Shown: positions 28,001 through 62,820 of the stretch, piece after piece | Layout: every line of letters begins with the position of its first letter | Position numbering within the stretch: the stretch's first letter is position 1 | Origin: Mesotaenium endlicherianum | Lineage: Eukaryota | NCBI GenBank assembly: GCA_009602735.1 | Contig: WELA01003054.1 | Coordinates: forward strand, 460,952-524,951 | DNA length: 64,000 nucleotides | Direction of reading: 5' to 3' | Position numbers and translations under genes: made by a program | Notes under the pieces: generated by a model | What the model was told of the DNA's origin: nothing | What the model saw: the letters and a program-made list of their open reading frames with translations, nothing else | Databases searched by the model: none

Positions 28001-28400
28001 TCGTCCTTTAAATGGTCATACGCCCATGTCCGGCCAAAGAACACGGCCGGTACTAAGATTATGCACCCTAATAAGACGTCGCGAGAGCTGTCGTCGTCAG
28101 CCATGGTGGAAATACAAGAAGACACACAAAGAAGAAGAAGCTATTTCGGGTTGAACAGAGCTACTTTTGTTCAAAGACATTGATTTCTGCTATGTACGAA
28201 AAATGACCTCCCATGCACGCAATTTGTCGGTTGCCTCTCGCAATTTAATGGCAGATACCTTGTGATATAGGCTACCGTTCTAGACTATTTTCATAGAAAA
28301 CGAATAAATATTGAAGAATTCCGAGCATGTGCTAGAGGGCCAAGTAGTTAGGCCAAAAAATGACATATGGGCCATATGCGCCCCTCCGGGCCATCTAGTG
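25070..28400 (-). mobile_element. piggyBac DNA transposon, degenerate
   Basis: TIRs CACCAGATAGCCC (25070) and CACTAGATGGCCC (reverse at 28388-28400), 11/13 match; TTAA at 28401-28404 and TTAAA at 25065-25069; transposase inside. Confidence 0.8.
25824..28104 (-). pseudogene. piggyBac (PGBD-type) DDD transposase pseudogene
   Basis: FGRFMSRNRF..I.RYFH, YVDERTI (D1), KPYKYGMKVF, VVDRGFTSPPL..GT..NR (D2), YNLYKDAVDQID (D3), C-terminal RCVVC..MCEPCNVFLC..CFQRYH Cys-rich domain; several stops and frameshifts. Confidence 0.92.
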
Positions 28401-28728
28401 TTAAACTGTGACTTTGCTTACCACTTGTGAAGTTCTTTAAGTGACTGAAATCCAATTTAAGAGAGGTCGGATTGCTCCTCATAAGAGAGACTTGTGGCCC
28501 TAAATATACAAGAAAAAAAAGTGTCAACTTCATTAATACCTCTGTTACTTATAACTTGCCAACAAAGACTTATAAAATATGTTAAACTATGGACATCTTT
28601 AGAGCTTTAATCTCGGATAACCGGCAAGTGAGGCGCGGATTGAATGCCAGATCACTTTAAGAGGCCTCTCCTACGTCCACAAATGTGTTCAAAGGTTGTA
28701 CTAGCACTCAACTAAGTAGCTAAGTTGC

Positions 28729-29448
28729 TGTAATGAATCAGTATATTAGTTGATATAATATTCATTTAAATAATAAATTTAAATAAGTTCAGCCTGCTGA
28801 ACTTTAGTTAATATCGAGTCTGCTGGACTTTATTAAATCATCAGTTTAATGACTCAGCCGGAAGCAGCAGGCTGAAGTCAACTTCGGTCAGCTTGCTGAC
28901 AAATTCTTTGAAAGTCAGCTGACTTCCGTAGTCGGTCGCAGCAAACTGCCTAGATATGCATCTAAGTGTGGTGTGCTAGATGAATGGCCAGATGACATCC
29001 TTAGGATGGATGGCGATTCGGGATGATGGGAGATGGCGGTGGATTTGGTTAACCGAGGTCCTACCAACGTGGTTAACTCCCGGGTAGGCGGTGCCATCGC
29101 ACTGACCGTTGAACAGTAAACTCATTCCATGTCCATATGCTAGGCATTGCTCTCGAGTTTGGCATTCGGAAACGAGGCCAACTCTCTTGTACAGCTTACT
29201 GAGAGAGATCTGAATCCAAGGCGAGAAGCCATTGATACGCACTGTCTTCTAACCTTGCTTATGTATGAGTTTACTGATTTGCATTATTGATGCTAGTTTA
29301 CTCGCATTTGACTTACGAGTATTATTCACTGCTAGTGTGTTGTCCTTTGCCGTTAAACCAGTTAACGGAAAATACCATAAAGATTACTTGCTGATATAAA
29401 GATCTTTATTAATTGTTAATCGCCTATTTGGTAAGTCGATTCATTTCA
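28729..29448 (+). repeat. B1 5' LTR
   Basis: tgtaatgaatc...gattcatttca terminal inverted repeat; PBS follows. Confidence 0.95.
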
Positions 29449-29482
29449 GTGGTATCGGAGCTGTTATCACAGTCTTCTTTGT

Positions 29483-30961
29483 ATGGTAAGGACAAGGTCT
29501 CAAACTAGCAACTCCCGAGACATGGAGAACCAGGATAACGAGAATGTCAAAAACCAGGCGGAAAGCCATGTAGCGGGAACCCGTACCTATTCTGAAGCAG
29601 TGGCAGATAGTGCAGCTAGAGAGGCTGCAAATGAGGCACCTGCTATTGCCGCAGTCTCAGCACAGCGAGTTGAGGAGGAGAGAGCCAGATTAGAAGCTGA
29701 ACAATTAGCAAAGGCCGCTGAAGATACAGAAAGGAGGGAAAGACAGCCAGCTGACGAGCGCACTGTTGAAGAACTTATGGCATCAAGGGCCAATGTTCTG
29801 AACTCACCTCCTGTTGTACAACTCAGTGTACCCCTAGGTCAAATACGTGACCGGCTGAATGCGGCAGGAATTGCTGCTGCAGGAGCGAGAGGGACTGTTG
29901 AGGACACTACTCAGCGAGTAGAGGCCAATGCTGCTGCTGCATATGCTAATCTACCACACCAGAGTGTAGACTTGGGAGCATTGTTCGTTTAGATGCAGTC
30001 GCAAATGGCGACCATGTATCAGTCCCAACAGGAGGACAAAAGAATCATAATGTCCCTACTGCGGGACAGAGACCAACTGGGGTCTCAAACCACTAGTGGT
30101 GGTGGCCGAGGGCCTAGTAAGCCCAAGCCGAAACCTCCCCAGGACTATGATCCTGACGGAAACAAAAAATATCACCTGATCAAGTTTCTCGCGGATGTTG
30201 AGCAGTGGCTGGAGAACTACCCAGAACTGCAAGATTACGAGAAGGTCAGGCACACCGGTGCGCTACTGAAAGGCAGTGCCGCAGACTGGTGGCTTTACTG
30301 GAAGGAAGAGCGTAAGGCTCGGCAACTCGGTGACCCTACGTGGGTAGAGTTTGTCGAGAAGTTGCATGAGAAGTTTGATGTCATCAACCAGCAGGAGAAA
30401 GCTATCTATGCGATGATCTCCCTGACACTGAAGCAGACCACTTCAGTTGCTGAGTTTGCTCAAAAGTTCCAAGAGAACATGATGAAGCAGCCTGATTTGC
30501 CAGAACGGTATAGGATAGCATACTTCAGGTATGGCTTGAAATCCGAGGTCTCTGGTCATTTTGCTGAGAAAAAGTATGAGAAACTGGCTGACTTGATCCA
30601 GGATGCTGACGCCTGGGATCAGCAGCAGTTCAATCACAAGCGCCAGAGTAACGCTTTGGTGTCTAAGATTGTCAAAAAGCCCCACGGTTCCTACAATGCA
30701 GTTGAAGGAGACCAGGCTGAGGATAATCAGGGTGATGAATATGAGTATGAGTACAATGCTATTCAGTCTAGAGGTAGAGGTGGTCCCTCTCGAGGTGGCT
30801 ATGGAAGGGGTGGTGGTAGGACTAAGCCGAGACCAGCCTCAGCAAAATCTACTTGCTACCATTGTCAGCAGAAAGGCCACTACAGAGAACAGTGTCCGGT
30901 CAAGCACCTGCCTAAGGTCGAGAGAAAAGACCAGCCTTTAAAAGACAGCAACAGTCAGTAA
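29483..30961 (+). pseudogene. gag: B1 gag (one internal stop at 29990)
   Basis: KPKPPQDYD..LLKGSAADWW..LKQTTSV, CYHCQQKGHYREQC knuckle. The stop codon is CAG in copy B2. Confidence 0.93.
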
Positions 30962-30984
30962 TCCAGTCTACTGACTGTGAGGAT
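30937..30984 (+). promoter_or_regulatory. Family B -1 frameshift signal with probable pseudoknot
   Basis: T_TTA_AAA (30937-30943), 7-nt spacer, perfect 10-bp stem ACAGTCAGTA/TACTGACTGT; loop ATCC can pair with GGAT at 30981-30984. Identical in B2 (56407-56454). Confidence 0.8.
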
Positions 30985-33900
30985 GCTAGAGATAGTGAGT
31001 CGTCACTAGCTGCCCTCGTAGCAGGTATTATGGGTCCTGCTGAACTGGATTCACTATGCATGCCTGACAACCAGATAAAGGAGACCATCAGCAATATAGA
31101 CGTCCAGAGAGTGCACACTCTGGATGCTCTTGTTCCACCTGATGTCCAACATTTCTTTGCTACGTCAGGAGAACAATGCGAAAGTCAGGAAAAGACAGTC
31201 CCCCCTATCCTACTGCATTGCATGATTGCAGGTAGGAAGGTGAGGGCATTTGTTGACGGAGGGGCGTCACATACTTTTATCCACAAGGACTTAGTTAAGC
31301 GGCTAAGGCTGCCTACTGTCACCCAAGGGAATAGAAAAATATTCCTTGGAGATGCCTCAAGTATCCCGGGAGGAGTTATAACCAAGCCTATTGAGGTCCA
31401 GTTAGGTTCTGGCATTGCAGTTCTAACTGAAACGCTTACATTTGAGGTACTCAACACTGGCTTTTATGATCTCGTGCTAGGCAGGTCCTGGCTTAATAGA
31501 CATCAAGCTGAAGTGTGTTGGAGCAGAGGTACAGTTAAAGTGAGAGGAGCCAGTGATGGGCAGACTGACTTGGCACCCACCAGTGCTCTTCCTCTTGTCC
31601 TGTGTGGATGGCAACTGAAGGAAAAGAAGAGGCTTCCAGAAGGATGCAAGTTGCTGAATGCAATGGAGTTCGTCAAAAGCTGGAACCAGAAGGAAGACAG
31701 AATGTTTTGTCTGCTGCTAAAAGAGGTACCTCCTCAACCTGAACAAGTGGTTGCGAAAAAGGTAAGCCCTCCGGAGCACCCTATTGCTGCAAAAATTGTT
31801 GCTCAGTACACGGATGTATTTGATATGCCTCCAGGACTACCCCCTAAACGGGAAGTAGATCATAGGATTGATTTATTACCTGGTAGTCAGCCACCCTGGC
31901 AACGCACTTATGGCTTGTCCTATGTGGAAAGCGAGGAGTTGAAAACACAGATTGCAGAGCTTGAGGAAAATGGTTATATTTCTCCCAGTATATCACCTTA
32001 CGGCGCACCCATCCTATTTGTTAAGAAAAAGGACGGCAATATGCGGATGTGTGTGGATTACAGAGCTCTGAACAAAATTACGGTAAAGAACAAGTATGCC
32101 TTACCCAGAATCGAGGACTTGCTTGATACCCTGTCTGGTGCTAAAGTGTTCAGTAAGATAGATCTCAAGAGTGGTTATCATCAAATCAGAATTCCTGAAG
32201 GTGATGAACACAAGACTGCCTTCCGCACACGCTATGGACACTATGAGTTCAACGTGATGCCATTTGGACTGACTAATGCTCCTGCTACCTTCATGGGTGC
32301 TATGAATGACATTTTCAGACCTTATTTGGATAAGTTTGTGCAAGTTTTTCTAGATGATATTTTAATTTTCTCTAAAGATGAAGCTCAGCACACTGAACAT
32401 TTAAAGACTGTCCTGGACTCTCTGAGGAAGAATCACTTATATGCTAAAATGAGCAAGTGTGATTTCTTTAAGGAAAGTATTGAACTCTTAGGCCACGTTG
32501 TAAGTAAAGAGGGCATCAGTGTGGATCCTAAGAAAGTCCAGACCATAAGGGACTGGCCAGTACCACAGTCGGTCTCTGAAGTTAGATCCTTCCTCGGGTT
32601 GGCTAACTACTATAGGAGATTTATTGAGAATTATTCCACAAAGGCCAGTAAACTGACTGACCTTACTAAGAAAGACATAGGGTATGTGTGGGGGGAAGAG
32701 CAGCAGGCTGCCTTCCAAACCATTAAAGATGCCCTTTGTTTTGCCCCAGTGCTAGCCGTGTATGACCCCAGCAACCCCGTGCAGGTGGTCACTGATGCCT
32801 CTGACTTTGCCATGGGTGCTATTTTGTTGCAGCTTGCTGACAAGACCACAAAGGATGGTAAGGTACGGCAGGAGTGGCATCCTGTGTTGTACGAGTCTAT
32901 GAAATTTAATCCAGCAGAGATTAATTACTCAGTGCATGATAAGAGCTGCTAGCTATCATTCATGTGCTCAAACAGTGGAGAGCATACTTACATGGTAAGG
33001 CCTTTAAGGTGATTACAGATCATCTAGCTCTGACCCACTTTCAGAAGAAGTCCAAGCTGTCGAGGAGGGAGAACCGCTGGAGCCAGATGCTGGAGCAGTT
33101 CCAAGTCCAGATCGACTACAAACCAGGGAAGTTGAATCCTGCTGATGCACTCTCTAGAAGACCTGACTTGCAAGATACGAACTTTAGTCAGCATGCTGTA
33201 GATAAAGTCCTGTGTGCACTCACTTCACTACAGGTGAAAAAGTCCTTCCTTGAACAACTTAGGAAAGCCTACCTTTCTGATCCAACATTTGAGCCCAACC
33301 CCACTACTGGTGTGTGTTGTGCTACTGCACTCGGGTATAAGCTGAAGGGAGGGGTCTGGGTGACTGAAACCACATCAGGCAGGCTGAAGCTGGTCATTCC
33401 TAATAACTTGGAAATAAGGTCTCTCTTACTGAGTCAAGCGCATGACAGTCTCCTGGGGCAGGCCAAAACTGTTGGCAAACTGGCAAAACATTATCATTGG
33501 GAGGGATTACCCTGGGAGGTCTTGAAATATGTCAACACCTGTGACCAGTGTCAGAGAAATAAGTCTCGGCACACACCACCCGGAGGTCTCTTGCAACCAC
33601 TGTCCATCCCAGCTGGACGCTGGGAAACTATATCCATGGACTGGGTGGTCTCACTACCAAGAACTGCCAATGGGCATGATTCCATACCGGTAGTCGTGGA
33701 TAAATTGACAAAAATGGTCATTTTTATCCCCACAACTGTCAAAGTGACTGCACTCGAAACAGCGAGACAGTTCTACAACCATGTAGTATGCCAACATGGG
33801 CTCCCTTCTAATATCATCTCAGACAGAGACTCAAAATTCACCTCTAAGTACTGGAGAGCTTTAATGGGGTTAATGGGAGTCCAACAGCTGCTCAGCACAA

Positions 33901-34750
33901 CAAAGCACCCTCAGACTGATGGCCAGACTGAAAGAACTAACCGAGTTCTGCAGGATGTGCTGAGAGCATATATTAACCAAAAACAAAATAATTGGGATGA
34001 CCTGTTGCCTCAAATTCAGTTTGCGGTCAACAGTGCGGTGCACGCGTCAACGGGCAAGACTCCTTTTGAACTCAGCCTGGGTAGAGTCCCTAAGTCCCCT
34101 CTAGATGTTCTGGGGGAGTCTTTAACTCACCCTGAAGGGATTGACAATCCGGTCTCCCTCCAGTTAACCCAGGAGTTTGCTGACACCCTGTCAAAAGTCC
34201 AACAAAACCTGCACAGAGCCCAAACAAACCAACAAAAATACGCTAATCAACATCGTCGGGAGCTGACATTTTCTAAAGGCGATTTAGTCAAACTGCATTC
34301 TCAGCACCTGTACCTCCCTGGTGTGGTCAAGAAAAAGCTTGGCCCTGTCTGGGTCGGTNCCCTGTGTGGGTCGATCCATGTTCGGTGGTGCGTCGTGTCG
34401 GTCAGAATGCTTACAAACTGAACATGTCAGCCGAATACAAGGGTCACCCGGTCTTTAATGTCTCCTTCCTGAAACTCTATATCAAAGGTGATACACTGTT
34501 CACAGGTCGGTTACCTGTCCAACCGGGAACGGTCCCCGCTGTCCGGGACGGCGATCCTGAGGAATATGAGGTCGATGAGATTTTTGACGCTCGCTCGATC
34601 CGTCGATCGTCTAAACATGTCATGAAGTACCTCATCCGATGGAAGGGTTACGGTGCCTCTGGGGACACTTGGGAATTTAAAGACCAGCTGACCAATGCCA
34701 AAGGGGCGTTAAAACGGTTCCACCTTCAGGCGGCTGGGGCACCGCCCTAA
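30940..34750 (+). pseudogene. pol: B1 pol (protease, RT, RNase H, integrase, chromodomain) with frameshifts
   Basis: [72 protein letters not shown]. Confidence 0.95.
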
Positions 34751-34954
34751 CTGTCCCTTCAGTAGACATGGGAAGGTGACAGGAGGTCCTGTCTCCATAT
34801 AAGTGGAGGGGAATGTGACAGTTGTGACAGGCAGCCCACCTTTAAAATTAAGTTGGAGGGAGTGGTAGTCTCTGATCACCATGTTACCCACTCAACCTGC
34901 GCTCACACTCACTTGCTCTCCAACTCAATTTTTCCTTATATTCGCTCACACCAG

Positions 34955-35062
34955 GTATTCCACTCTAGGAACTCTCCCGATCGCGTCCCTCTTCATCAAG
35001 GGCACTCAGTAGCGGCAAAATATCATGACTTCACTAACTGCATTGTGTTTATGATTGAGCAG
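34955..35062 (+). promoter_or_regulatory. Putative intron / splice acceptor upstream of ORF3
   Basis: CAG|GTATTC donor, CACTAAC branch point (35032-35038), CAG|G-ATG acceptor. Same layout in B2 at 60482-60583. Confidence 0.6.
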
Positions 35063-35063
35063 G

Positions 35064-36740
35064 ATGACTCAAAAGTCGGAACTCAAGAGGAAGAGAAGGG
35101 CGGAAGAGGCACATGCAGAATACTTGCAATTCCGTGGAGACATCGAATCATCTTCCATCACCGCTCGGGAATCACAACGACTCCAACAACAGCGGGAGGC
35201 ACAGAAGAAGAAGGAGGAGGAGGAACAGGCCAGACTGAGGCAGGAAGAAATGGACAGAAAAGCTGCAGAGGAGGCCAAGAAAGCAGAGGAGGAGAGGCAA
35301 GCTGAGGAGAAGCGGAAGTAGCAGGCTGAAGAAGAGGAACAGAGGAGAATCAGCAGCTACCGCTACACAGTGCTGGGCAAGGGCTTTGATCTACTGGAGG
35401 AGGCCTTCAAGTATGCCCAGAGAAGTCGCAGTGAGTCGCAGAAGGAAATCCTCCAGAGGGAAGGGGAGACATCCGAAAACTTTGACAAGTATATAGAGGT
35501 TAGCACGGGGCTCCTCCTCTACCATGATTATGCCAGGATGGTAGGGTATACGGTCAGAGAGGCCAAGGCAATGGCCCAGGTGAACGAAGCAGGGGCTGTC
35601 TCGATTCCTGGTATCTGGGGGGAAGATAGGGTCATCAGGATGATCCCCATGGACGCGGACAGCTTCAAGGACTCAACACCCCATAACAGGTTCGAGGCCA
35701 TGTACAATGAGGTGGAGAGGAGGAGCTGGGAATTCTTGGCCAGAGAAACCAGTCAGCTGGACTTTGCAGGGCACTGGTACCCTTGTACTCTTAAAAGGAC
35801 AGACCCTGCCTTCTTCCAAAAGCCCACCGATTGGCGGTGGATGACCATCAACATGAGGGACCGGCAGAATGACAGGGCGACGGATGAGGATTTCCTGACA
35901 GACCTAAAGGGGAACATAGTATTGCCCCCTCACATTGCGGCTTGGGACCCAAGATTGGATGGAGTCAGAGACTGCATGAGCCAAGAGATGCAGGGGGACA
36001 GAAGCTGGGCCCGAGAGTCATTCTCAAAAGGGAAGCACGCTTATGCCAAATAGGCAAGTAAGCAGGGGGAAAAGGACCTCTATGCGGTCCGGACTCAGCA
36101 ACCCCCACCAGCACCCAAAAGGGGAAGGTCCGTAGGATNCGTAGGATATTCTTTATCTCGGGAAGAGCTGGAGCAGCTGACAGAAGAGACCCCAGAAGTC
36201 TCAGAGGAACCCGGGGACGGCGAGGAGGAGGAGTCAGAGTAAGACGAGGAGGAAGGCGAGGAGGAGGATACTAGTCCCGTCGTGATCCTGACACCTGCCA
36301 CATCCCCTGTAAGGGAGAAGACGAGGTTGGTCCTGCAGCAACTCGCTGAAGAGGAGGATATCACTTGGCTGGGAACTGCCAGAGGACAGAGCCCATCTGC
36401 AGACACGGAGACCCCGTCAGACAGAGCAGACAGAAGGGTTGCTTGGGAGATAGCCAGAGGCCTGCCAGCATCTCCCTCGCAGAGAGGGCATGTACCCTTG
36501 GCTCATGTCATGCAACATCCTTCCGGGATGCCGGTATACATACCTATCAGTTTGAGGGCTGCCCAGGAGAAGGCTGCCTCCCTTCAGTTTCAGACTGTGC
36601 AGGAGGAAACAGCCCAGTTACTGCGTTCTCCGCCGGGTCCTTACACGCAACCTCTCTCTCTGACAGGCTTCAAAAGACCCCAAGACAGGAGGAGGTCTGG
36701 CTCCCCTGAGTATTGGGCCTCAGGGACATCTCCCTCCTAA
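35064..36740 (+). pseudogene. Family B accessory ORF3, variant a (~555 aa, unknown function)
   Basis: A single reading frame across ORFs 35055, 35370 and 36282, with only point stops (35319, 36051, 36240); homologous to variant b in B2. Confidence 0.85.
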
Positions 36741-36825
36741 TGGCAGTAGGCTGGGGACGGAAGGGACAGCACGCTGTTATTAGTGTTAGTGTTGTCGAGG
36801 CGACAACATGATATGGTGGAGGGAT

Positions 36826-37539
36826 TGTAATGAATCAGTATATTGGTTGATATAATATTCATTTAAATAATATAGTTAAATAGCTTGCTGAACTCTAGTT
36901 AATATCGAGTCTGCTGGACTTTATTAAATCATCAGTTTAATGACTCAGTCGGAAGCAGCAGGTTGAAGTCAACTTAGGTCAGCTTGCTGACAAATTCTTT
37001 GACAGTCAGCTGACTTCCGTAGTCGGTCGCAGCGTACTGCCTAGATATGCATCTAAGTGTGGTGTGCTAGATGAATGGCCAGATGACATCCTTAGGATGG
37101 ATGGCGATTCGGGATGATGGGAGATGGCGGTGGATTTGGTTAACCGAGGTCCTACCAACGTGGTTAACTCCCGGGTAGGCGGTGCCATCGCACTGACCGT
37201 TGAACAGTAAACTCATTCCATGTACATATGCTAGGCATTGCTCTCGAGTTCGGCATTCGGAAACGAGGCCAACTCTCTTGTACAGCTTACTGAGAGAGAT
37301 CTGAATCCAAGGCAAGAAGCCATTGATACGCACTGTCTTCTAACCTTGCTTATGTATGAGTTTACTGATTTGCATTATTGATGCTAGTTTACTCGCATTT
37401 GACTTACGAGTATTATTCACTGCTAGTGTGTTGTCCTTTGCCGTTTAACCAGTTAACGAAAAATACCATAAAGATTACTTGTTGATATAAAGATCTTTAT
37501 TAATTGTTATTTGCCTATTTGGTAAGTTGATTCATTTCA
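36826..37539 (+). repeat. B1 3' LTR
   Basis: Nearly identical to the 5' LTR; follows PPT GGTGGAGGGAT. Confidence 0.95.
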
Positions 37540-37839
37540 GTTGCTCAGCTAAGCACAACTCAAACCAATTGACACTAGATGCAAGAAGATGCCAAGAGCT
37601 CCTCAATGGTTAAGTTTATTTTGACAAACGCTTCCTAAATAGTGCCTAAAAAGTGAATCTAAAACTTGGGGAAGTTTTCTTAGCGGTAGGTGATGCAACC
37701 ACCATTTTATAGCTAGTTTGGTGCACTTCAACTATGAAAATAGAAGAATAATGTGTCGTAGGGAGCTCGCGGATTTCTGCGTAAGTAGAGAGCCTCCTTT
37801 GAGATCGCAAATAGCCCAAAATGTGACCTTGGTGCAAGT

Positions 37840-41095: not shown

Positions 41096-41798
41096 TGTAA
41101 GGTCATAGGTTTATAAAGTGCATTTTTCAGTTTTATGAAAGTATGTTTTGATTGCATACAACTCTATAATGCATTTATGTGGTCATATTGATATAAAGTT
41201 CATCGAATTTGGTCAAGTATTGAGACAGTTATGGATTTCCAAAGTTTAATTAGTTTTGAGGTCGGTTGACGACTGTCCCTAATTTGCGGTGAGCGCGACC
41301 GTCGGATTGACCGACAGCGTCGAGCGATCTGGCCCGTTATAATGAACTGGAACCTTCACGTAAGTTCGGCTGACGCGGAGTGCCGACTAGGTCGATTTAC
41401 CTAGAAGTTTCGATTTAGCCTAGCGCGTCTAAGATAGAATATTCTAGTGATGTCGATGCATGTATGTGGACGTCAGTTCGGCCCGACACGTCAGATTAGA
41501 CTGATCTGGCTTACTCACGAATATTCTGGAAGTGACGATTTGACGAACACTTAAATTCCGTAGCTTCCTCCTAGGGAGGAGCACTTAGGCAAAAAATTAT
41601 AAATAGGCAAAACTTCTTTGTTTCTTATGAGTTTTCACTTCTTTACATTTCTACGGGTTTGTATTGACAAGGCCTTTCATCCTACACCATTTGTGAGCAG
41701 TTTCTTGCCACTCAAAATGTCAAGTAATTTTTCTAAGCTTTCTTAGTGATATGCCACTGCACTCTTTAGTATGATTGCAACTAGTTCCTTTCCTCGTG
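41096..41798 (+). repeat. C2 5' LTR, main part (remainder now inverted at 54089-54126)
   Basis: Starts tgtaaggtcatagg and stops ~40 bp short of the U5 end at TSD TCGTG. Confidence 0.92.
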
Positions 41799-42477
41799 TG
41801 AAAGGGGCAGAGTGCCCTTGTGGAAGCGTAGTAACTCACGAGGAAAGGAACTAGTTGCAATCATACTAGAGAGTGCAGCGCCATATCACTAACAAAGCTT
41901 AGGAAAAATACTCAACATTTTGAGTAGCAAGAAACTGCTCACAAATAAACTAGGATGCAAGGCCTTGTCATTACAAACCCGTAGAAATTTACAGAAGTGA
42001 AAACTCATAAGAAACAAAGAAGTTTTGCCTATTTATAATTTTCTGCCTAAGTGCTCCTCCCTAGGAGGAAGCTACGGAATTTAAGTGTTCGTCAAATCGT
42101 CCCTTCCAGAATATTCGTGAGTAAGCCAGATCAGTCTAATCTGACGTGTCGGGCCGAATTGACGTCCACATACATACATCGACATTACTAGAATAGTCTA
42201 TCTTAGACGCGCTAGGCTAAACCGAAACTTCTAGGTAAATCGACCTAGTCGGCACTCCGCGTCAGCCAAACTTACGTGAAGGTTCGAGTTCATTCTAACG
42301 GGCCAGGTCGCTCGACGCTGTCGGTCAATCCGACGGTCGCGCTCATTGCGAATTAAGGACAGTCGTCAACCGACCTCAAAACTAATTAGACTTTGGAAAT
42401 TCATAACTCTCTCAATACTTGACCAAATTCGATGAACTTTATATCAAAATGACCACAAAAATGCACTCTATACTACT
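41799..42477 (-). repeat. C solo LTR inserted antisense in the C2 LTR (its first ~67 bp now at 54132-54198)
   Basis: tgaaaggggcag...ctatactact; cut by the B2 insertion at TSD CTACT. Confidence 0.92.
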
Positions 42478-44225
42478 TGAAATGAATCAACTTACCAAAT
42501 AGGCGATTAACAATTAATTAAGATCTTTATATCAGCAAGTAATCTTTATGGTATTTTCCGTTAACTGGTTAAACGGCAAAGGACAATACACTAGCAGTGA
42601 ATAATACTCGTAAGTCAATTGCGAGTAAACTAGCATCAATAAAGCCAATCAGTAAACTCATACATAAGCAAGGTTAGAAGACAGTGCGTATCAATGGCTT
42701 CTTGCCTTGGATTCAGATCTCTCTCAGTAAGCTGTACAAGAGAGTTGGCCTCGTTTCCGAATGCCGAACTCGAGAGCAATGCCTAGCATATGTACATGGA
42801 ATGAGTTTACTGTTCAACGGTCAGTGCGATGGCACCGCCTACCCGGGAGTTAACCACGTTGGTAGGACCTCGGTTAACCAAATCCACCGCCATCTCCCAT
42901 CATCCCGAATCGCCATCCATCATAGGGATGTCATCTGGCCATTCATCTAGCATGCCACACTTAGATGCATATCGAGGCAGTTCGCTGCTACCGAGTACGG
43001 AAGTCAGCTGGCTGTCAAAGAATGTGTCAGCAAGCTGACTTAAGTGGACTTCAGCCTGCTGCTTCCGGCTGAGTCATTAAACTGCTATTAAATATTAAGT
43101 CCAGCAGACTGATTATTAACTAGTGTTCAGCAGGCTGAACTTAATTAACTATTATACTGAATATTATATCAACTAATATACTGATTCATTACAATCCCTC
43201 CAACTTAACTTGTTGTCGCCTCGACAACGTTAAACTGCAAAGCCTTAAATAAAGTGATTGAACCTGACCAGCCTCCCTTACTGACTGCCTCTTCAGCCTG
43301 TCACCTTAAGGGGTTGTTCCTGGGGCTTCAGGATCAGGAGACGGAGATCTGGACCTGGATCTGAACAGCCCTCTAGGTCTGTCAGCTGACCTTCTAAAGA
43401 ACCCTGTTTGCTCTAAAGTTGGACCTCGAGGAGAACGAAGGATAGTAGCCTGCTCTTCACCCACTTGGGTGTTGATCCCCACATAGACAGGCATTCCAGT
43501 AGGATGCTGAAATACATTGGCTAGAGGTACATGCCCTTGAGCGGAGGGGGAGGCCGGCATACCTCTGGCCCACCCGCGTGTCCCTCACCTGGCACTCTTG
43601 TCCTCTGGGGACTTCTGCCTGTGTCTGCTGCCCAGTACAGTCAGATCAGCTTCTTCCCCTGCTTGGGCAGGTGGGCTGGGGGAGCGAGCGCGGGGTCCAG
43701 TAGTCGCCATAACGGGGATCACATTCCAAATACCTGATCGTGGTTCTTTAAGAGGCGCCCCTACCTGTCCCTGGGTATCCTGAGTACCTGCTGCTGATGC
43801 TTCTCCTCTGCCCTGTTCTTCTTCCTCAGCCTCCTCATCCTCCTCCTCGGAGACAGTAGGGGTCTCGTCCACTAAGTCGTCCTGCTCCCTAGTAGACATG
43901 GAGTAGTCTACCGACCTCTCTTTCTTAGGGCGCGCTGGAGGTTGCTTGGCCTTCAGCCTGCTGATATCTATCCGGCCTGCATTCTTTGCCCATTTGACAA
44001 AGGCATGCTTTCCCTTCGAGAAGTAGTCTCTTCCCCTCCTCCTATGCTCCTTGGTCTCTGCATTCATATTGCTCAGGCATCCATTCAGCCTCGGATCCCA
44101 AGGGGCAATGGGAGGTGGTAGGATGAGATAGCCGTCTAGGCCATAGTGGAAGTCATCTGGTTGGGCTCGGTCACACTCCTGCTTCTTATTTGTGACGGTC
44201 ATCCACCTCCAGTCTGTTGGCTGCT
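42478..44225 (-). mobile_element. Family B copy B2, 3' part (3' LTR 42478-43193, PPT, ORF3b C-half)
   Basis: B LTR plus PPT; TSD CTACT pairs with AGTAG at 54194-54198. Confidence 0.92.
43306..44220 (-). pseudogene. ORF3 variant b, C-terminal half
   Basis: PTDWRWMT..LPPPIAPWDPRL..FSKGKHA..GMPASPSAQGHVPLANVFQHPTGMPVY; joins in frame to 60585-61343. Confidence 0.85.
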
Positions 44226-48327: not shown

Positions 48328-51300
48328 TCAAGCTTCCAGATCTGTCTTCAGGGATACCATCACTGCATTTAATTGCAGTCTTGAGAGGGGGTCAGCCGGG
48401 TTTGTCTTGCCGGGCTGGTACTGAATCGTGATGTTGTATTGTTGCAAGTATCCGCTCCATCTTGCTTGTCTCCTTGAGAGATACGGCTGCGTTTGGAGGT
48501 GCTTTAACGCCTCGTGGTCCGTGGTGACCAGTACTTTGCGTCCTTCAACGTAGCAGCGCCAAACCTTCAAGGCATGTACAATCGCCAATGCCTCTCGCTC
48601 CGTGGTTGTATAATTTTGCTCGGCTGGATTTAGCTTCCTTGACTCGTAGGCGATGGGCTGCAGTCCCTTGCCTTGGTCTTGAAGCAGGATTGCTCCTATT
48701 GCATAGGAAGATGCATCGGTGATGACGTGGAAGGGCCAATCTGGGTTTGGACTTGGGAGTGTGAGCACCGGGGATGTGGTCAATCTTCGCTTTAACTCTT
48801 GAAATGCCTCTTCCTCTTTCTCGGTCCATGTATATAGCCTGTCCTTCTTGAGTAGATCTGTCAGGGGGGCTGCTATGTGCGAGAAGCCTTGGATGAATTT
48901 TCTGTACCAATTGGCAAATCCCAAGAATGACTGGAGTTCTTTCTTGGTCGTGGGGGTTGGCCATTCCTCCACCACCGTGGTCTTCTTGGGGTCCATCTTG
49001 ATGCCATCAGCAGTCACGTGGAGACCTAGGAACTCCACTTCTTGTTTGGCAAACTCGCACTTTGACTCCTTCGCAAATAGCTTGTTTTGCTTCAATACTT
49101 CAAGGACTTCTTTCAAGTGTCTCGCATGCTCTTCAAGGGTCTTGCTGTAGATAAGGATGTCATCGATGAATACCACCACAAATCTGTCCAACATGGGCTG
49201 AAATATGGTGTTCATCATAGTCATGAAAGTTGCTGGCGCGTTGGTGAGTCCAAATGGCAGGACCATGAACTCAAAATGTCCATATCTTGTCCTGAATGCC
49301 GTCTTCTCTATGTCCGGTTCTGCGATGCGAATCTGGTGGTAGCCGCTCCGTAAGTCAATCTTCGTGAAGTACTTGGCTCCAACCAGCCGGTCCATGAGCT
49401 CATCCATGCGCGGCAGCGGGTATCGATTCTTGATGGTGATCTTGTTGAGGGCGCGATAGTCCACACACATCCTCAAGGTACCATCTTTCTTCTTGACAAA
49501 TAGCACCGGGGCTCCAAATGGCGACTTGCTAGGTCGAATGAAGCCATGCTCCAGTAGCTCCTTGATTTGCTTCTTGACTTCGTCTAGCTCCGTGTATGAC
49601 ATTTTGAACGTAGGCCGAGAGATGGGCTTGCTTCCGGGCTCCAACTCTATCTTGTGGTCTACGAATCTTTTGGGGGGTAGGCCCTTGGGCAATTCCGGGG
49701 AGAACACTTCTTTGTAGTCCTCAAAGACTTCTTGTATCTCCTTGGGAACGGGGCTGCCTTCTTGACTCTCGATGTCTTTCTTGATGTCTTTTGGCGTGAT
49801 CAAGGCCAAAAGAAGCTCGTGTCCCTTCCTCACAAGTCTCTTGAGTTGGAGGGCGGACAATAGTATCTCGTGTGCCGGCTTCTGGATGTCTTGGGTCTGG
49901 ATATTCTGGATTGCGCGCAAAATACAGATTCTTGAAGTGATGTCATTCTTGATCTTGATAGTACCGGTCCTCCAATCAACTTGGGGGTTGTGCTTGGTCA
50001 ACCAAGGCGTCCCTAGGATGACGTCGTACTTGCCCAATTGCATGGGGGAGAACACTACTCTATCCTTGAAGGACTTGATAGAGAGTGCCAAGGGGTACGT
50101 CTTCTTGGAAGGGGTAGTATAGGAGAATCCATCGGGCATCATAATCTCCTCGTCGTGGTCAAGAGTTCGCATAGTAATACCGTGCTTGGTGGCGAAATCT
50201 GCAGCAATGAAGTTGCCTTGAGCTCCGCTATCCACCAAGATGTGGACCTTCTTTCCTCCAAGGTAACCTCTCAAACTCATTGGGGCTGGAACGTCGTCTT
50301 CAACGGGAGTCTCCACCTCACTTGGCTTGTTGTCTTCTCGTGAAGTGGGTCTTGGGGTGGTAGGCTCCTGGCCTACCGGCGCTGTTCGTTTTTTTGACAA
50401 CTTTTTGGGGCATGACAGTGCACGATGGCCCTTTTCCTTGCAATAAAAGCATAGTCTCGCCGTCATGAGAGCTTCTTTTTCAGCCGGGGAGAGTCTTCCT
50501 TTCACTCGTTGCTGGTTTCTTGCATCATAAGTGTCATTGGAGGGTCTTCCACTATTCCGAGCAGCCGCGGGGTCCCTTTTAATAACTCCGATTTCCATGG
50601 GTGTGGGTCCAGATTCTGATGTGGAAGGGGCTGCGTACACCCGCGTCGTCGGAACCCGTGAAGATGGAGGCACGGAGTGCTTGAAATCCAAGGTATCCAC
50701 CTTTTGGGCCAAGTGTCCAGCATATGAGCAATCATGATGCTCCGCAAGTAATAAGTCTCGTAGCTCCTTGATGTCAGGTACCACCACTCTCTTGGAATCA
50801 CCATAATACCATATGCCGTCCTTCTTCTGCATACTTGAGTTGGACTCAGCTGCTCCACCATCAGCAAACTCTGGGTCCTCCTCATAACCTCTCTGAAGCT
50901 TCTCCTTGAAGTCCATACTCTCCTTGATGACCGAGACAGCTGCAAGGTCACACCTCCTGGATAAAGCGTCTGCAGGGTTGATCTTCCCAGGTAAGAACTC
51001 AATCTTGTGGTCGAACTGTTGCAGAAACTCCATCCACCTTGCCTGTCTTGGTGTCAATGTTAGCTGCGTCATAAACTTCACCAAGCTCTTGTGGTCGGTC
51101 TTGATGGATACCTTTCGGCCGTCCATATAACATCGCCAAATCCTCAAAGCCTGGATAACAGCCAACATCTCCCGCTCGTGTGCTGCATAGTTTTGCTCAG
51201 CAGGACTCAACTTCCTGCTCTCATATGCCACAGGCTGCAATCCTTTGCCCTGTTCCTGGAGAAGAATGGCTCCCACTGCGACATTTGATGCTTCCGTGAT

Positions 51301-52632
51301 GATGGTGAAAGGAAGCTCTGGACTTGCAATTGCCAACACAGGTGCCTGTGTCAACAGCTCCTTAATCTTCTCAAAGGCTTGCTGCTCCTTGTCACCCCAT
51401 AGCCACTTCTCCTGCTTCTTCAGCATGTCTGTGAGCGGTGTACATACCTTGGCAAATCCTTCAATGAAACGTCGATAATAATTCGCCATGGCGAGGAAGC
51501 TTCTGAGTTGATGAATACCAGCAGGTACCGGCCAATCTCTGACTGCTTGCACCTTCTTCTGCTCCACCTTGACTCCTTCAGCTCCCACTATGTGCCCAAG
51601 AAACTCGACCTCCTTGAGACAGAAGTCGCACTTGCTCATCTTCCCATACAGCTTCTGATCTCTCAAGACCTCCAACACCTTCCTCAGATGCCCCACATGC
51701 TCTTCCAAGGTCTTCGAATAGATCTGGATGTCGTCCAAAAATACCACCACAAATTGGTCCAAGTAGGGACTGAAGATACTATTCAAGAGTCCCATGAATG
51801 TAGTAGGTGCATTCGTCAACCCAAAAGGCATGATTGTGAACTCGAATAACCCATAGCGAGTCCTAAGAGCAGTCTTCTGAATGTCTTCTTCCGCAATCCG
51901 TACCTTGTGATAGCCACTCCTCAAATCGATCTTCGAGAAATACTTCGCCCCGACAAGCCTGTCAATCAACTCGTCCACTCGTGGAAGTGGGTACCTGTTC
52001 TTGATGGTGACCTTGTTCAGTGCCCGGTAGTCGACACACATCCTCATAGTCCCATCCTTCTTCTTCACAAATAAGACTGATGCTGCAAATGGAGACTCGC
52101 TGGGTCGGATGAATCCCTTCTCCAATAACTCTGTCAGCTGCTTCTTCAACTCGTCCAACTCCGTAAACGATTGACGATAGGCGGGTCTCACTGGTGGCTT
52201 GCTCCCTGGTTCCAACTCGATCTTGTGCTCCATAGCTCTCTGTGGAGGTAATCCTGTACGTAGCTCCTTAGGAAACACGCACTCGAACTCCTCCAACAGC
52301 GCCTCAATCTGGGCAGGCATCTCAGCAGGCTTCTTCTCTTGAGCAGTTGGGCTTTGCTCCTTTTGAGCAAGGGGATTAAACACCACTACTTGCTCCTCCG
52401 GCGATGTATATTCGCCCAGGCTGTTAGGATTCACGCTTGCTCCATCTGATGACCTGGCCAGGGCCACCGAAACAAGGTACATCTCCTTCACCTGATTTGC
52501 CCTGCATAGCTTCTTAACTTGCAGGCTCGACAGAAGACAGTTACTTGTGGTCGTATCTACCTCCACCTGTTTCGCTGTCTCCATTCGACCATCACGCCCT
52601 TGGACTTTTACTTGTCCTGTGCTCCAGTGCAC
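48328..52632 (-). CDS. pol: Chimeric 1434-aa ORF: C RT-RNase H and start of integrase zinc finger, fused to A gag tail, protease, RT, RNase H
   Basis: Two RT motifs (FLDDIQI, FIDDILI), two RNase H domains, junction [18 protein letters not shown] at 50710/50711. Product of the inversion; expression doubtful. Confidence 0.85.
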
Positions 52633-54126
52633 TTGAAGGTTGGCTTTTCTTAGCCATGGTCAGCCCAATATCACTCATAGTGACCCAACTCTGCCTGCTC
52701 CATAACTTTAGTACCCTGGTGCCTCGCTACTTCCATGTGAATAGCTTCCGTAGGTGCACCACACTTGAGTCTCTGCCCATTCGCCAAAATTGCCTCCTTA
52801 GGCTCATAATGCTTCTGCACAGGAATTCGCCACTTTTTCACCAGCTTCTTGTACACAAAGTTTGCACTTGCGCCACTGTCGACCATACACTTCGCCCTGT
52901 TGCCGTCGACTACTCCTTCCACGATGATAGGCTTGTCCACGTCTCGTCCTTTGCTTCTCGGCAGGCTCCTGGGGATAACCTCCTTGTGAGTTCTCGTCTT
53001 CACGCCAGTAGACACTCTAGAACGACTTACTGGCGTCCTTCTTTTTCCTGCTGTTGAGGTTGCTTCGCCTTCACATGACAGTCTCAAGCCAGATGTCCAA
53101 GCTTGCCACAATTATAACAGGGTCCCCTCGACTTGAAGTTTTGCTGCCTGCGCTGGTACTGCACAAGTCTCAACTCCATAGGTACTAGACCTTGTCCACT
53201 CGTGCTTGGCGCTTGAGATCCAAAGTGTCAATAACCTCCAAAGTTGTGGCTGCCCCACTGTCTCTGACTATACTCCACAACGTTGACCCTTGTTGCCAAT
53301 GCCATCGTTTCTCCAAGACTGGTAGGGTCCTTGAGCGCCACTTCCTTGGCCATAGTTGGCTTGAGTTCCCTCTTGAACTTATCCATCATCTCCGACTCGT
53401 GCATGGATGGACATTGAAGCACCTGCTCGTTGAAGCGCGATACATACTCTTGAACACTTCCTCGTTGACGAAGGCGCACCAATAGATCTCGAGCAGTAGC
53501 CTCGGTTGCAAGAGGTTGAAATTGCCTTTAAGCCTTCAAAGAGCTGATCAACAGTAGTAGGAACTCCAGACAGCTGCTCCTGTCGCTCATACCAAGCTCC
53601 AGCACTCTTCTTCAGCAAAGTAATCACAAAGGCAACTTGCCTTTCGGTTGTGAGCGCAAAATATTCCATAAACTTCCTCACTCCAAAAATCCATTGATGA
53701 ACAGGCGGCCATCCACGCTCTCCAGTATACACTTCAGGCTTAGGCGCACGCACTCCCGATCCGGGTGGAATAATTGGTTGCACCACTGGATTAAGATGGA
53801 TCGGTGGTACAACAGGTGCAGGTGCCAAACTTGTCAAAGCGGCATTCCCAACAACAACTCGCACCATCCTCTCCACCTCCGCGCGCATATTTTGTTGAAA
53901 TTGGGCGTAGACTTCTCCTCCAATTGCATTCGCCATTTGCCTCAGCATCGCCTGCATTTCTTGTTGCTCTCTGGTCATCGTTGGTGCTGCTTGCTGCCCC
54001 GCACGCTCAACATGCTCGACATGTTCGCCTCCTCCAGCACTGCGACTTTATAATATGATATGCAAACTAGCCCAGCTCCGATACCAAATGAAAGGGGCAG
54101 AGTGCCCTAGTGGAAGCGTAGTGACT
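50711..54126 (-). mobile_element. Family C copy C2, 5' part (U5 stub 54089-54126, PBS 54075-54086, decayed gag, protease, RT, RNase H)
   Basis: Collinear with C1 ~17053-20500. Confidence 0.93.
52999..54040 (-). pseudogene. gag: C2 gag, frameshifted
   Basis: ORFs 53379..53978 and 53228..53482 are homologous to C1 gag. Confidence 0.88.
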
Positions 54127-54953
54127 CACGATGTGAGGTCATAGGTTTATAAAGTGCTTTTTTGAGTGTCATGAAAGTATGTTCTGATTGTACAGTAGTG
54201 TAATGAATCAGTATATTAGTAGATATAATATTCAGTTAAATATAATAGTTAATTCAGTTCAGCCTGCTGAACACTAGTTAATAATCAGTCTGCTGGACTT
54301 AATATTTAATAGCAGTTTAATGACTCAGCCGGAAGCAGCAGGCTGAAGTCCACCTAAGTCAGCTTGCTGACACATTCTTTGACAGCCAGCTGACTTCCGT
54401 ACTTGGTAGCAGCAAACTGCCTCGATATGCATCTAAGTGTGGCATGCTAGATGAATGGCAAGATGACATCCCTATGATGGATGGCGATTCGGGATGATGG
54501 GAGATGGCGGTGGATTTGGTTAACCGAGGTCCTACCAACGTGGTTAACTCCCGGGTAGGCGGTGCCATCGCACTGACCGTTGAACAGTAAACTCATTCCA
54601 TGTACATATGCTAGGCATTGCTCTCGAGTTTGGCATTCGGAAACGAGGCCAACTCTCTTGTACAGCTTACTGAGAGAGATCTGAATCCAAGGCGAGAAGC
54701 CATTGATACGCACTGTCTTCTAACCTTGCTTATATATGAGTTTACTGATTTGCTTTATTGATGCTAGTTTACTCGCATTTGACTTACAAGTATTATTCAC
54801 TGCTAGTGTCTTGTCCTTTGCCGTTTAACCAGTTAACGGCAAATACCATAAAGATTACTTGCTGATATAAAGATCTTAATTAATTGTTAATCGCCTATTT
54901 GGTAAGTCGCTTCATTTCAGTGGTATCGGAGCAGTTGTCACAGTCTTCTTTGT

Positions 54954-60255: not shown

Positions 60256-60584
60256 TGTCTCCATTTAAGTTGGAGGGGAAAATATATGACAGTTAGTGAG
60301 TGAGAGCGATGAAGGGACAGTTACGTGAATCCTAAGTGTCAGCATAGTGACAGAGGGGACAGCCTGGCCCACATAAAGCACCTTAAGCGGAAGGAAGGAA
60401 CTTAACTCACCCTCAAACACATTCATATGTTTATGCTTAGCGCACCGCAATTACGTCAACTTTTAGCAATCACCCTGTAAGGTAAACAGGAGCAAATCCA
60501 CTATACTAATACTAACATACTTCCTGCAATCCCTATGACAAAGGTCCATATCCTACTAACTTGTGCCCTGGTTACATGTGCAGG

Positions 60585-61343
60585 ATGGCTCCCAACACAC
60601 AAAAGGAGGACAGAAAGCGCAAGGCAGGATAAGTCAGGAGGACAATGGAGCAATACCAGAAGGAGCTGGCGGCGACGTCCCTCACCAGGAGAGAACAAGA
60701 AAGGGTCCGCAGACAACAAGAGGCGGCAGAAGAAGCACAGAGGAAGAAGGATCAGGAAGCGGAAAACCTCAGGAAAGCTGAGGAGGCGAGACGGAAGAAA
60801 CAACAAGAAGAAGCGGCAGCGGCAGAGGAGGTGAAAAGGAAAAAGATTGAAGCGGACAAATAGAAGAGCTTGGGCACTTACAGGTATACTGTGGTGGGTG
60901 GCCAAAACTTTGATAACCTGAAGGAAGCATTACTGGCAGCCCAGGAGATCAACAAGCGGGAACAGACAACACTGCTACAGAGGGAAGGAGCTACAGCACT
61001 GGACAGGTACATCGAGACACACACCGGCGTGGTCCTTTACGAAGATTATGCTAAGATGGTGGGCTATACAGCAGAGCAGGNATACCTTGCAGATGATTCA
61101 GAAGACAAGCCGGTCTCCATACCAGGAATAGTGGGAGATCAGAGACTCATCCGGATGGTGAGCATGCGACCCGATAGCTTTAAGGATACGGTATTCTACC
61201 TCACACTACTGCCAGCTTACAATGAAGTGGAGAGAAGGAGCTGGGAGTACTTGGCCAGGAAAGCAGGACAGCAGATGTTCTCTCCCCACTGGTTCCCGTG
61301 TAAACCGAGGAAGACTGAGCACGCACCCCAGTACTACCAGCAG
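60585..61343 (+). pseudogene. ORF3 variant b, N-terminal half
   Basis: MAPNTQKEDRKRK, E/K/R/Q-rich helix, YRYTVVG..YIETHTG..LYEDYAKMVGYT..SIPGI..DSFKD..YNEVERRSWEYLAR; one frame, stops at 60630 and 60861. Confidence 0.85.
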
Positions 61344-62820
61344 TGTAGTGATTTGAGTTATTATATATTAGTTTGCATATACTTTAATGTTTTCAAATAT
61401 ATTTGGAGTAGTATTGTGTGGATTCAAGTGTGAATAGGTACTCTAGTGACTTGGTTCATGTCCTTTGAACCTTCTAAGGCATTTTTGAAGTTAGAGGAAA
61501 GACCTAGAAGACCTCCCCGTGGCAAAAGTCAACTGTGCCATTTTTAGGTCAGAAGGACATGTGTACATTATTCTAGAAAGAGGTGGCAAATTTTGGGATG
61601 TGTTGGGTGCCAACACATCAACATACACCTTCCTAGAAGTTACTTATTTAGCAAGTATATAAACAAGAGCTAGAACATAGAAAGACATTCCAGAATCACT
61701 CTTGTACTTGCCAAAATCCAGAAATATATTAACTTTCAAGAAGCCATCTCTCTTTCAAGAAGCTACCACTTGTGTTCAAAGATCCTTGTCTTGAATAGAT
61801 AAAGTATTCTGTTTTACTAAGTACTTTATCTATCTGTTTCACTACAGTGGTATCGGAGCTAGGCACTTTGGTAGCACAAGAAGATGGCCGATCCTCGAGA
61901 CCAACAGCAAGCTTTCGAAGGAAGCCTTTCCTCTCCAAGACACCCTCCTCTAGCGCCGATGGGAGAGCCCACTCAAGAAAATCTGCAACAACGAGAAGCA
62001 CCACAAGGAGGAGTACACCCTCCTCCAGCGTCGATGGGAGAGCCTACTCAAGGAAATCTGCAACAACAAGAAGCACCACAAGGAGGAGCACTGTCAAATC
62101 CCGTGGCAGCCGCTATAGCAAAGTTGACCCCACCACAAGGAGTTCCCGCAAATGAGTGGGCAGCCTTCCTAATGACCGTCCACAACCAAGTGGGCTTGGC
62201 CACCTATGAAGCAACCGTGCAAGCGTCAAGAGAAGCTATGGCTGCCATGGTTGCCCCTATTGCGAGCAATGCTCAAAATCCAGCCCCGGCTCAAGCGCCT
62301 CCACAAGAGCCAACGAGAGCAAGGAAACTCATCAAGCCCGGCAAACCCGACACTTTCAACCCCGGGAAAGGTGCCAACCTGAATTTATGGCTCTACCAAG
62401 TGGAGACGTACCTCGCGTTCCTTGAAGTACCCGAGGAGGACTACGTTCCCTTTGCCGTTACCTTACTTAGAGGAGCAGCAACATCATGGTGGCGTAACTA
62501 TCAAGCGGCTATATATCAAGCTATGGCGCACCCCATGCTCGGCCAAGAGCCCCCACCATCATATGCAAGATGGGCAGATTTTCGTGAGGCCCTCAAGAAG
62601 CAATTCATGCCCATCAATGCGGAGAAGATTGCCCGAGGAAAGCTCCACCATCTCAAGCAAACGACGTCCGTTCAAGAGTATACATCCAAATTTCACGCCC
62701 TCGCTCTTGAGATCCCCAACATGTCTCTCGAGGAGAAGATTGACCGCTACATCTTTGGCCTGAAGCCCAAGGTGGCAAAGGAAGTGGAATTACGCGACTT
62801 AACGGACTTCTCAAGGATCA
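61344..62820 (+). mobile_element. Family A copy A4, 5' part (5' LTR 61344-61846, PBS 61848-61859, gag 61884-62820)
   Basis: A LTR, TGGTATCGGAGCTAGG, gag open up to the inversion breakpoint. Confidence 0.93.

Follow-up and report, generated by a model that had tools for sequence, protein, structure and literature searches.

The question raised by this locus is how a third open reading frame (ORF3), lying in the sense direction after pol and ahead of the 3' LTR of two retrotransposons, is expressed. The window, that is the whole 64-kb stretch of Mesotaenium endlicherianum DNA that was analysed, is a nest of LTR retrotransposons, and the two elements concerned are referred to here as B1 and B2. 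An initial annotation had proposed that ORF3 is an env-like gene translated from a spliced RNA.

Pfam matches gave the same domain order in both elements, namely Ty3_capsid, zf-CCHC, protease, RVT_1, RT_RNaseH, Integrase_H2C2 and rve, with a chromodomain at the integrase C-terminus (PF00385, E 2e-8 in B1 and 6e-9 in B2) accompanied by SH3_Tf2-1. The three aromatic cage residues of the chromodomain are present by eye, and the available text of PMC6317226 describes the cage-type chromodomain as restricted to non-seed plants. The best reverse transcriptase matches were 45–62% identical and came mostly from land plants, Chara and green algae. Both features point to a non-seed green plant as host. 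TG...CA LTRs, a primer-binding site (PBS), a polypurine tract (PPT) and a 5-bp target duplication are all present. Both B1 and B2 belong to the Ty3/gypsy chromoviruses and carry a third ORF on the sense strand. B1 is complete (28729-37539), with a gag-pol region interrupted by stops and frameshifts. B2 is interrupted within ORF3 by an A-family element (in the region 61339-61847), and its 3' half lies inverted about 17 kb away. The 5' LTR of B2 and the LTR at 43193-42478 (minus strand) are both flanked by the target duplication AGTAG; both target duplications, AGTAG and AGCAG, agree for the split element, and the arrangement may be a real inversion or a misassembly. The parts of the two elements are as follows.

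28724-28728 and 37540-37544: 5-bp target duplication GTTGC of B1
28729..29448, plus strand: B1 5' LTR, 720 nt, TG...CA, with an 11-nt terminal inverted repeat
29450..29461, plus strand: B1 PBS, probably of the tRNA-Met type
29522..34750, plus strand: B1 gag and pol (capsid, zinc knuckle, protease, RT, RNase H, integrase, SH3, chromodomain)
35064..36740, plus strand: B1 ORF3, 558 codons long, the present copy carrying three in-frame stops and a single N
36826..37539, plus strand: B1 3' LTR, with a hairpin and the terminal PPT 5' of it
54199..54919, plus strand: B2 5' LTR, with a donor-like GT at 54902
60585..61343, plus strand: 5' part of B2 ORF3, 253 codons, with two stops and one N, truncated by the A-family LTR insertion
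42478..44224, minus strand: 3' part of B2 ORF3 and the B2 3' LTR, displaced and inverted, with the AGCAG duplication in common with 61339-61343

The B1 integrase tail carries a 17-nt insertion from an N (34359-34376) that is missing in B2 and in the X1 contigs, and several single Ns in the window suggest assembly scars. Elsewhere in the window, a broken piggyBac-like transposase with a C-terminal cysteine-rich stretch was found at 25900-28140 on the minus strand (Pfam DDE_Tnp_1_7, E 2e-28 and 1e-13), the piggyBac superfamily being uncommon in land plants. A 1443-codon open frame at 48328-52659 (minus strand) has two RT and two RNase H matches and is likely a nested or duplicated pol join. At 41170-42465, two D-family LTR-like copies lie back to back as a 1.3-kb inverted repeat.

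The two ORF3 versions proved to be very distant from one another, with an amino-acid identity of 46–51%, dN of 0.40–0.47, dS from 1.5 to saturated, and 33–38% identity at fourfold sites (8/27, 11/33, 24/63 and 7/21). These substitution patterns mark ORF3 as a genuine gene, with purifying selection acting on both versions. The gag and pol regions of B1 and B2 differ at a dS of only 0.07–0.20 (87–97% identity). Because such ancient ORF3 versions sit on near-identical gag-pol, comparison of the two elements indicates that the two ORF3 versions are far older than the gag-pol on which they sit and that spacer and ORF3 were exchanged together as one cassette. The exchanged segment extends from a PPT copy just behind pol to the hairpin before the terminal PPT, and B1/B2 homology stops near the internal PPT copy of B1.

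34801..34813, plus strand: internal PPT copy of B1, directly behind pol, with a second copy at 34850-34861
60267..60280, plus strand: internal PPT copy of B2, behind pol

All three internal copies lie directly behind pol and are followed by TG; they may have been left behind when the cassette was captured, or may prime the plus strand a second time in the manner of a central PPT. At the 3' edge of the cassette, the hairpin before the terminal PPT folds better than shuffled sequences (z of -2.6 and -3.1), and RNA folding of the introns and leader described below was no better than shuffles. The hairpin occupies 36791-36811 in B1 and 43228-43208 (minus strand) in B2, and is also kept in the ORF3 fragment near position 6 kb described next.

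A third, C-terminal ORF3 fragment of the B1 type (6069-6694, minus strand; 85% amino-acid identity, dN/dS 0.48) adjoins two LTRs, one of the A family and one of B; it comes without a spacer and is therefore uninformative on the motifs discussed below, the conservation of which was judged on two independent ORF3 versions only. As a rough measure, summed contig depth in X1 came to about 21 for B1-type ORF3, 70–200 for gag-pol and 240–320 for the LTR, and X1 contigs aligned to 28729-36825 had loose ends at 34804 that correspond to other spacer types. B1-type cassettes are probably a minority among the copies. A search for related loci gave none among 9 candidate stretches in viral contigs and none by pattern in metagenome DNA, and a protein search with the pol end returned four distant loci (28–31% identity or 22-residue matches) that are not relatives of the B family.

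Stops are present in all three frames of both spacers, so that ORF3 requires an mRNA of its own; pol read-through or frameshifting into ORF3 was ruled out on the same ground. An in-frame N-terminal extension from an upstream ATG is available in B1 only (34881) and absent in B2, and was rejected as a conserved feature. Directly before ORF3, both spacers hold the donor, branch point and acceptor of a putative intron.

34955..35062, plus strand: predicted 5'-UTR intron of B1, 108 nt, AG/GTATTC ... CACTAAC (35032-35038) ... GAGCAG/
60482..60583, plus strand: predicted 5'-UTR intron of B2, 102 nt, AG/GTAAAC ... TACTAAC (60554-60560) ... TGTGCAG/

The acceptor runs into the start codon as CAG/GATG at 35060-35066 in B1 and 60581-60587 in B2. 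The branch point, the CAG/G-ATG and the upstream AG/GTA donor before both ORF3 versions had been described in the initial annotation, and every coordinate was verified. Its remark that the spacers are mostly unalignable was borne out as well, since the intron interiors align no better than shuffles (p 0.73); alignment of the whole introns is barely above shuffles (p 0.026), owing to their ends. Within the 64 kb, with both strands searched, ACTAAC followed by CAGGATG 12–35 nt later occurs at two places, each of them the start of an ORF3. Each spacer was dinucleotide-shuffled 20,000 times; a strict pattern, requiring ACTAAC, a YAG no more than 5 nt from the ATG and an AGGTR donor, arose at a frequency of 0.0008 for B1 and 0.002 for B2, and a looser CTRAY pattern at 0.012 and 0.017, the patterns having been chosen post hoc with the data already seen. 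The only words of 7 nt or more that B1 and B2 have in common in register are ACTAACT and GCAGGATG; at saturated divergence neutral DNA would lose them, which argues for selection on the 3' splice site.

The GT donor, branch point and YAG acceptor of a U2-type intron are thus kept in both versions; the spacing of 21–22 nt from branch point to acceptor, together with CAG/G, fits the spliceosomal consensus in each. All three signals lie within the segment exchanged with ORF3, and the distance from donor to acceptor is kept (108 versus 102 nt). The internal donors match the consensus at 6 of 9 positions; that of B1 is the best site of its spacer, and that of B2 ties with a GT 5 nt upstream (60477). 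The predicted introns are not U-rich (26–29% T), and the B2 spacer holds extra TACTAAT/TACTAAC words at 60504-60516. Removal of the intron would also delete two upstream ATGs in each version. Upstream of the donors, the search pattern found one TATA-like word per spacer, a second B1 word (34798) falling outside the pattern.

34841..34848, plus strand: TATA-like word of B1, 114 nt above the internal donor, candidate internal promoter
60372..60379, plus strand: TATA-like word of B2, 110 nt above the internal donor, candidate internal promoter

RNA over B1 was examined across 28729-36825 with the X1 contigs and with three raw RNA runs, X10, X13 and X16, from which 254, 935 and 542 reads aligned, 6–24% of each run being sampled. 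The five joints listed with at least three reads in these runs did not include 29430^35063 or 34954^35063. Sense depth over the body of B1 ORF3 was at most 0.08 in X10 and at most 0.99 in X16, equivalent to about 0 and 6 reads and giving little power for junctions, and B1-type ORF3 was almost silent in all three runs. RNA over 33300-35200, which covers the integrase end and the spacer, was mostly antisense in the two stranded runs. The unstranded run X13 contained a 306-nt CT..AC joint (34209-34514) with 8 reads, which corresponds to a GT-AG intron on the minus strand; its acceptor ends in TGTGCAG, and it falls in a stretch whose X10 and X16 reads are first-mate-plus, in agreement with the strand assignment of these runs. 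The host accordingly uses acceptors like that of B2. An opposite-strand joint at 33493/35126, with 5 and 3 reads, suggests that a rearranged copy is transcribed from another locus. X13 also had unspliced reads across the B1 intron; these were discarded as evidence against splicing, as the library is unstranded and the region mostly antisense in the stranded runs. A poly(A) site suggested by a coverage drop near 29270 was also discarded, as the loose ends at 29279 look like an older variant of the LTR below the likeness cut-off.

For B2, reads were aligned to 60290-60880 at a likeness of 80, which gave 8 reads from X14, 36 from X17 and 0 from X11; among these 44 reads there was no joint and no read over 60584-60589. 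None of the four junctions predicted in the initial annotation (29430^35063, 34954^35063, 54901^60584 and 60481^60584) was therefore recovered from the six raw RNA runs, at low read depth. All 36 B2-type reads of X17, a stranded run, are sense and start at or after about 60599, with none over the spacer or acceptor. Depth in X17 was 0 over 60290-60589; it stood at 0.55 over 60590-60609, had risen to 7.4 by 60710-60729 and reached about 20 beyond. Extended backwards, this ramp meets zero near 60591, which is the start codon and not a point some 80 nt upstream. At the depth of the ramp, a read-through RNA would give about 9 spacer reads and a long LTR first exon 5–14 junction reads at depth 7–20, none of which were seen, and a short-exon model about 2 junction reads at depth 3 (P(0) about 0.12); these expectations treat reads as independent, which overstates the odds. 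The X17 coverage fits a short ORF3 RNA of its own, beginning near the ATG, better than read-through or a long LTR exon. Since 24 of the 36 reads fit only partly, with loose ends at 60726/60730, much of this signal may come from another variant or locus.

A contig of 363 nt from X5 (depth 52.7) spans 60415-60775 with 17 other letters. The 13 of these 17 differences that were listed include no change in donor, branch point or acceptor, an outcome expected by chance in 27–35% of cases at 4.7% divergence. The two stops in the 5' piece of B2 ORF3 in the window are absent from the X5 contigs covering them, and the B2 ORF3 frame looks open in the family.

Candidate donors for a longer transcript starting in the LTR were found in the LTR itself and in the leader.

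29428..29436, plus strand: LTR donor-like site TTG/GTAAGT, GT at 29431, 18 nt from the LTR end and 36 nt behind the TATAAA at 29395
29483..29491, plus strand: second donor-like site ATG/GTAAGG behind the PBS, GT at 29486 (54957 in B2)

The initial annotation had assigned a G/GTAAGT donor near the 3' end to every young B LTR. This site is present in 7 of 8 aligned B-type LTRs, the oldest of them (about 78% identical) being without it, and its consensus score is 7/9. GGTAAGT arises in 6.4% of shuffled LTRs, and four more donor-like sites of 7–8/9 lie within gag-pol of each element. Because B-type LTRs share one ancestor and are conserved along their full length, and given this chance frequency, the LTR donor is weak evidence. 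The site behind the PBS matches 6/9 of the consensus and is identical in all three leaders. The TATAAA at 29395 may be a TATA box, which would leave a first exon of about 5 nt, or else a poly(A) signal; in the A-family LTR a comparable word lies about 50 nt from the end, in addition to a mid-LTR TATA box. As to an LTR donor removing both PBS and gag-pol in the manner of retroviral env, this comparison did not hold. The order in MLV is U5, PBS, donor in the available text of PMC3185771; in that of PMC3694450, the major donor of HIV-1 lies 195 nt behind the poly(A) signal and a donor inside the LTR is given for foamy viruses only. MLV and HIV-1 donors are thus behind the PBS or LTR and env splicing retains the PBS, as these sources describe it. 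The donor behind the PBS (29486, 54957) is a better retrovirus-like candidate than the LTR donor.

The predicted ORF3 protein does not resemble an envelope protein. In B1 its layout comprises a basic N-terminus, a coiled-coil-like stretch, a globular core and an acidic, S/T-P-rich tail. In both versions the first 13 residues include NLS-like basic clusters (KRKRR and RKRK); more basic clusters come after the core, followed by an acidic tail rich in S/T-P and RS. No transmembrane segment was found, the best 19-residue Kyte-Doolittle mean being 0.66 in B1 (558 aa) and 0.64 in the 5' part of B2; no signal peptide was found by pattern, the N-termini being charged and basic, and none of the three ORF3 pieces contains an NxS/T glycosylation sequon. 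Pfam gave no family above noise, protein searches (one of them limited to lengths 306–977) gave no homologue, and the ESM Atlas gave none that was usable. Two matches from a 1.84-billion profile search were repeat proteins retrieved through summed weak repeats and were rejected as artefacts. An AlphaFold model of the core had a mean pLDDT of 35 and was unusable. The env-like label was dropped on the basis of the missing transmembrane segment, signal peptide, glycosylation sequon and homologue. Judged from these features, ORF3 does not encode an envelope protein, and its product is probably an orphan nuclear accessory protein.

Taken together, we favour an internal promoter and a 5'-UTR intron of about 105 nt feeding this orphan, probably nuclear accessory protein, with a probability of roughly 0.5. 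A promoter in the spacer, marked by the TATA-like words, would start the ORF3 RNA about 80 nt above the internal donor; the intron of 102–108 nt would be spliced out, leaving the ATG one base past the acceptor, and the RNA would end within the 3' LTR. We infer the promoter, the start site, the use of the intron and the nuclear location of ORF3. The original proposal of a spliced ORF3 RNA thus stands in part: a selected gene start lies behind a conserved branch point and acceptor, and its dedicated mRNA is probably spliced, although no junction read was recovered. Of the two routes that had been offered, the one from the LTR donor is set back by the X17 signal, which tapers to zero at the start codon, and the internal promoter with a 5'-UTR intron is the better option. 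An RNA driven by the LTR, in which a donor at 29431/54902 (foamy-like) or at 29486/54957 (MLV- or HIV-like) is joined to the ORF3 acceptor with removal of gag-pol, appears unlikely. The occurrence of the 7/9 donor in 7 of 8 LTRs and of the 6/9 donor in all three leaders would agree with it, a strong branch point would suit an intron of 5.6 kb, and spliced subgenomic RNAs are described for the ATHILA env and Bagy-2 in the available text of PMC7197481 and PMC7264820. However, no such joint was seen where 5–14 junction reads were expected, the LTR motif has a chance frequency of 0.064 and is rivalled by the four sites within each gag-pol, the first exon would shrink to about 5 nt if TATAAA is the TATA box, and there would be no explanation for an internal donor that both versions keep about 105 nt upstream.

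The internal promoter could also produce an unspliced RNA starting at the ATG, with ACTAAC and GCAG serving as promoter or initiator or as translation context, or occurring by chance. The X17 ramp reaching zero at the start codon with no upstream read would be expected from such an RNA, the introns are not U-rich, and the additional words at 60504-60516 indicate that branch point-like sequences are not rare in the B2 spacer. We nevertheless regard it as improbable, as both versions, at saturated divergence, conform to the spliceosomal consensus in the branch point, its spacing and CAG/G. RNA-seq covers 5' ends poorly, and a short first exon is easily missed; this under-coverage could hide it here. 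Lastly, the signals could be relics, ORF3 having been captured with the end of a host intron or with a second non-autonomous element, and the sites being unused or trapping upstream host transcripts. The PPT copy and TG start directly behind pol resemble the join of an older element end, and the near silence of B1-type ORF3 in X10, X13 and X16 would agree with unused sites. This explanation is very unlikely, since unused sites would not survive saturation of synonymous sites, both ORF3 versions are under purifying selection, and no host-gene homologue was found.

To place the preferred arrangement of internal promoter and 5'-UTR intron, the B elements were compared with known systems. The plant chromoviruses Tcn1, Chlamyvir, Galadriel and Tekay, as presented in the available text of PMC6317226, have the same gag-PR-RT-RH-IN-chromodomain order, the 5-bp target duplication and the cage residues. 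In the same text, gag and pol frames overlap in most Tcn1 members, as in the B family; Tcn1 is mostly self-priming, whereas the PBS of the B family is tRNA-type. An extra 3' ORF on the sense strand is given there for Tekay only (18%) and for none of Tcn1, Chlamyvir, Galadriel, Reina and CRM, although exceptions may exist. Additional ORFs of unknown function are mentioned for some fungal elements in the available part of PMC2864245. The portion of PMC7264820 at hand describes extra ORFs as common in plant LTR retrotransposons, with origin, expression and function mostly open, and reviews sense ORFs that follow pol ahead of the 3' LTR, env-like RNAs made by splicing, as in Bagy-2, and Grande gene23, an accessory gene transcribed from a promoter of its own.

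The env-like ORFs of ATHILA, Bagy-2 and SIRE share with ORF3 the sense orientation, the position between pol and the 3' LTR, the need for an mRNA of their own and an upstream acceptor, as far as described in the available text of PMC7264820 and PMC7197481. However, their elements are non-chromoviruses or copia, often with transmembrane segments and splicing from the LTR transcript, whereas ORF3 has no hydrophobic segment or Pfam match and probably its own promoter. The closest functional model is maize Grande gene23, an accessory gene of the 3' internal region that has a promoter to itself and yields a nuclear product (PMC7264820, available text). It differs in being antisense, in a Tat/Retand element and in having no 5'-UTR intron described there, and the likeness to ORF3 is by description only. 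Foamy viruses combine an LTR donor, an internal promoter for the 3' accessory genes tas/bet and an internal PPT copy, like the proposed B layout (PMC3694450, available text), but they are animal retroviruses without homology to B elements and provide an analogy of layout only. The Ty3/gypsy element Cer1 of C. elegans makes a nuclear accessory protein, CERV, from a spliced RNA (available text of PMC12786077 and PMC10309623); this RNA is derived from the LTR transcript, and the comparison with ORF3 is again by description only. No match to the B element was present in the available text of PMC12786077, PMC2864245, PMC13547354, PMC11963269 or PMC1142308, and the literature searched, from which subscription journals were mostly absent, did not describe any chromovirus whose sense ORF combines an internal promoter with a 5'-UTR intron.

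A broader possibility, which we put forward tentatively, is that the cassette acts as a plug-in accessory module in a foamy-like layout, bounded by two PPT copies, equipped with its own promoter and 5'-UTR intron, older than gag-pol and swapped in the manner of alleles. Its product could be an orphan nuclear protein with an anti-silencing or RNA-regulating role, and the turnover of the module would suggest an arms race. For the clades of cage-type chromoviruses, the available text of the 2019 survey (PMC6317226) lists no accessory gene on the sense strand. The two ORF3 versions at saturated divergence would serve as a natural footprint that marks the exact splice sites, and the fact that old cassettes were swapped onto young gag-pol suggests that the accessory protein itself is under selection.
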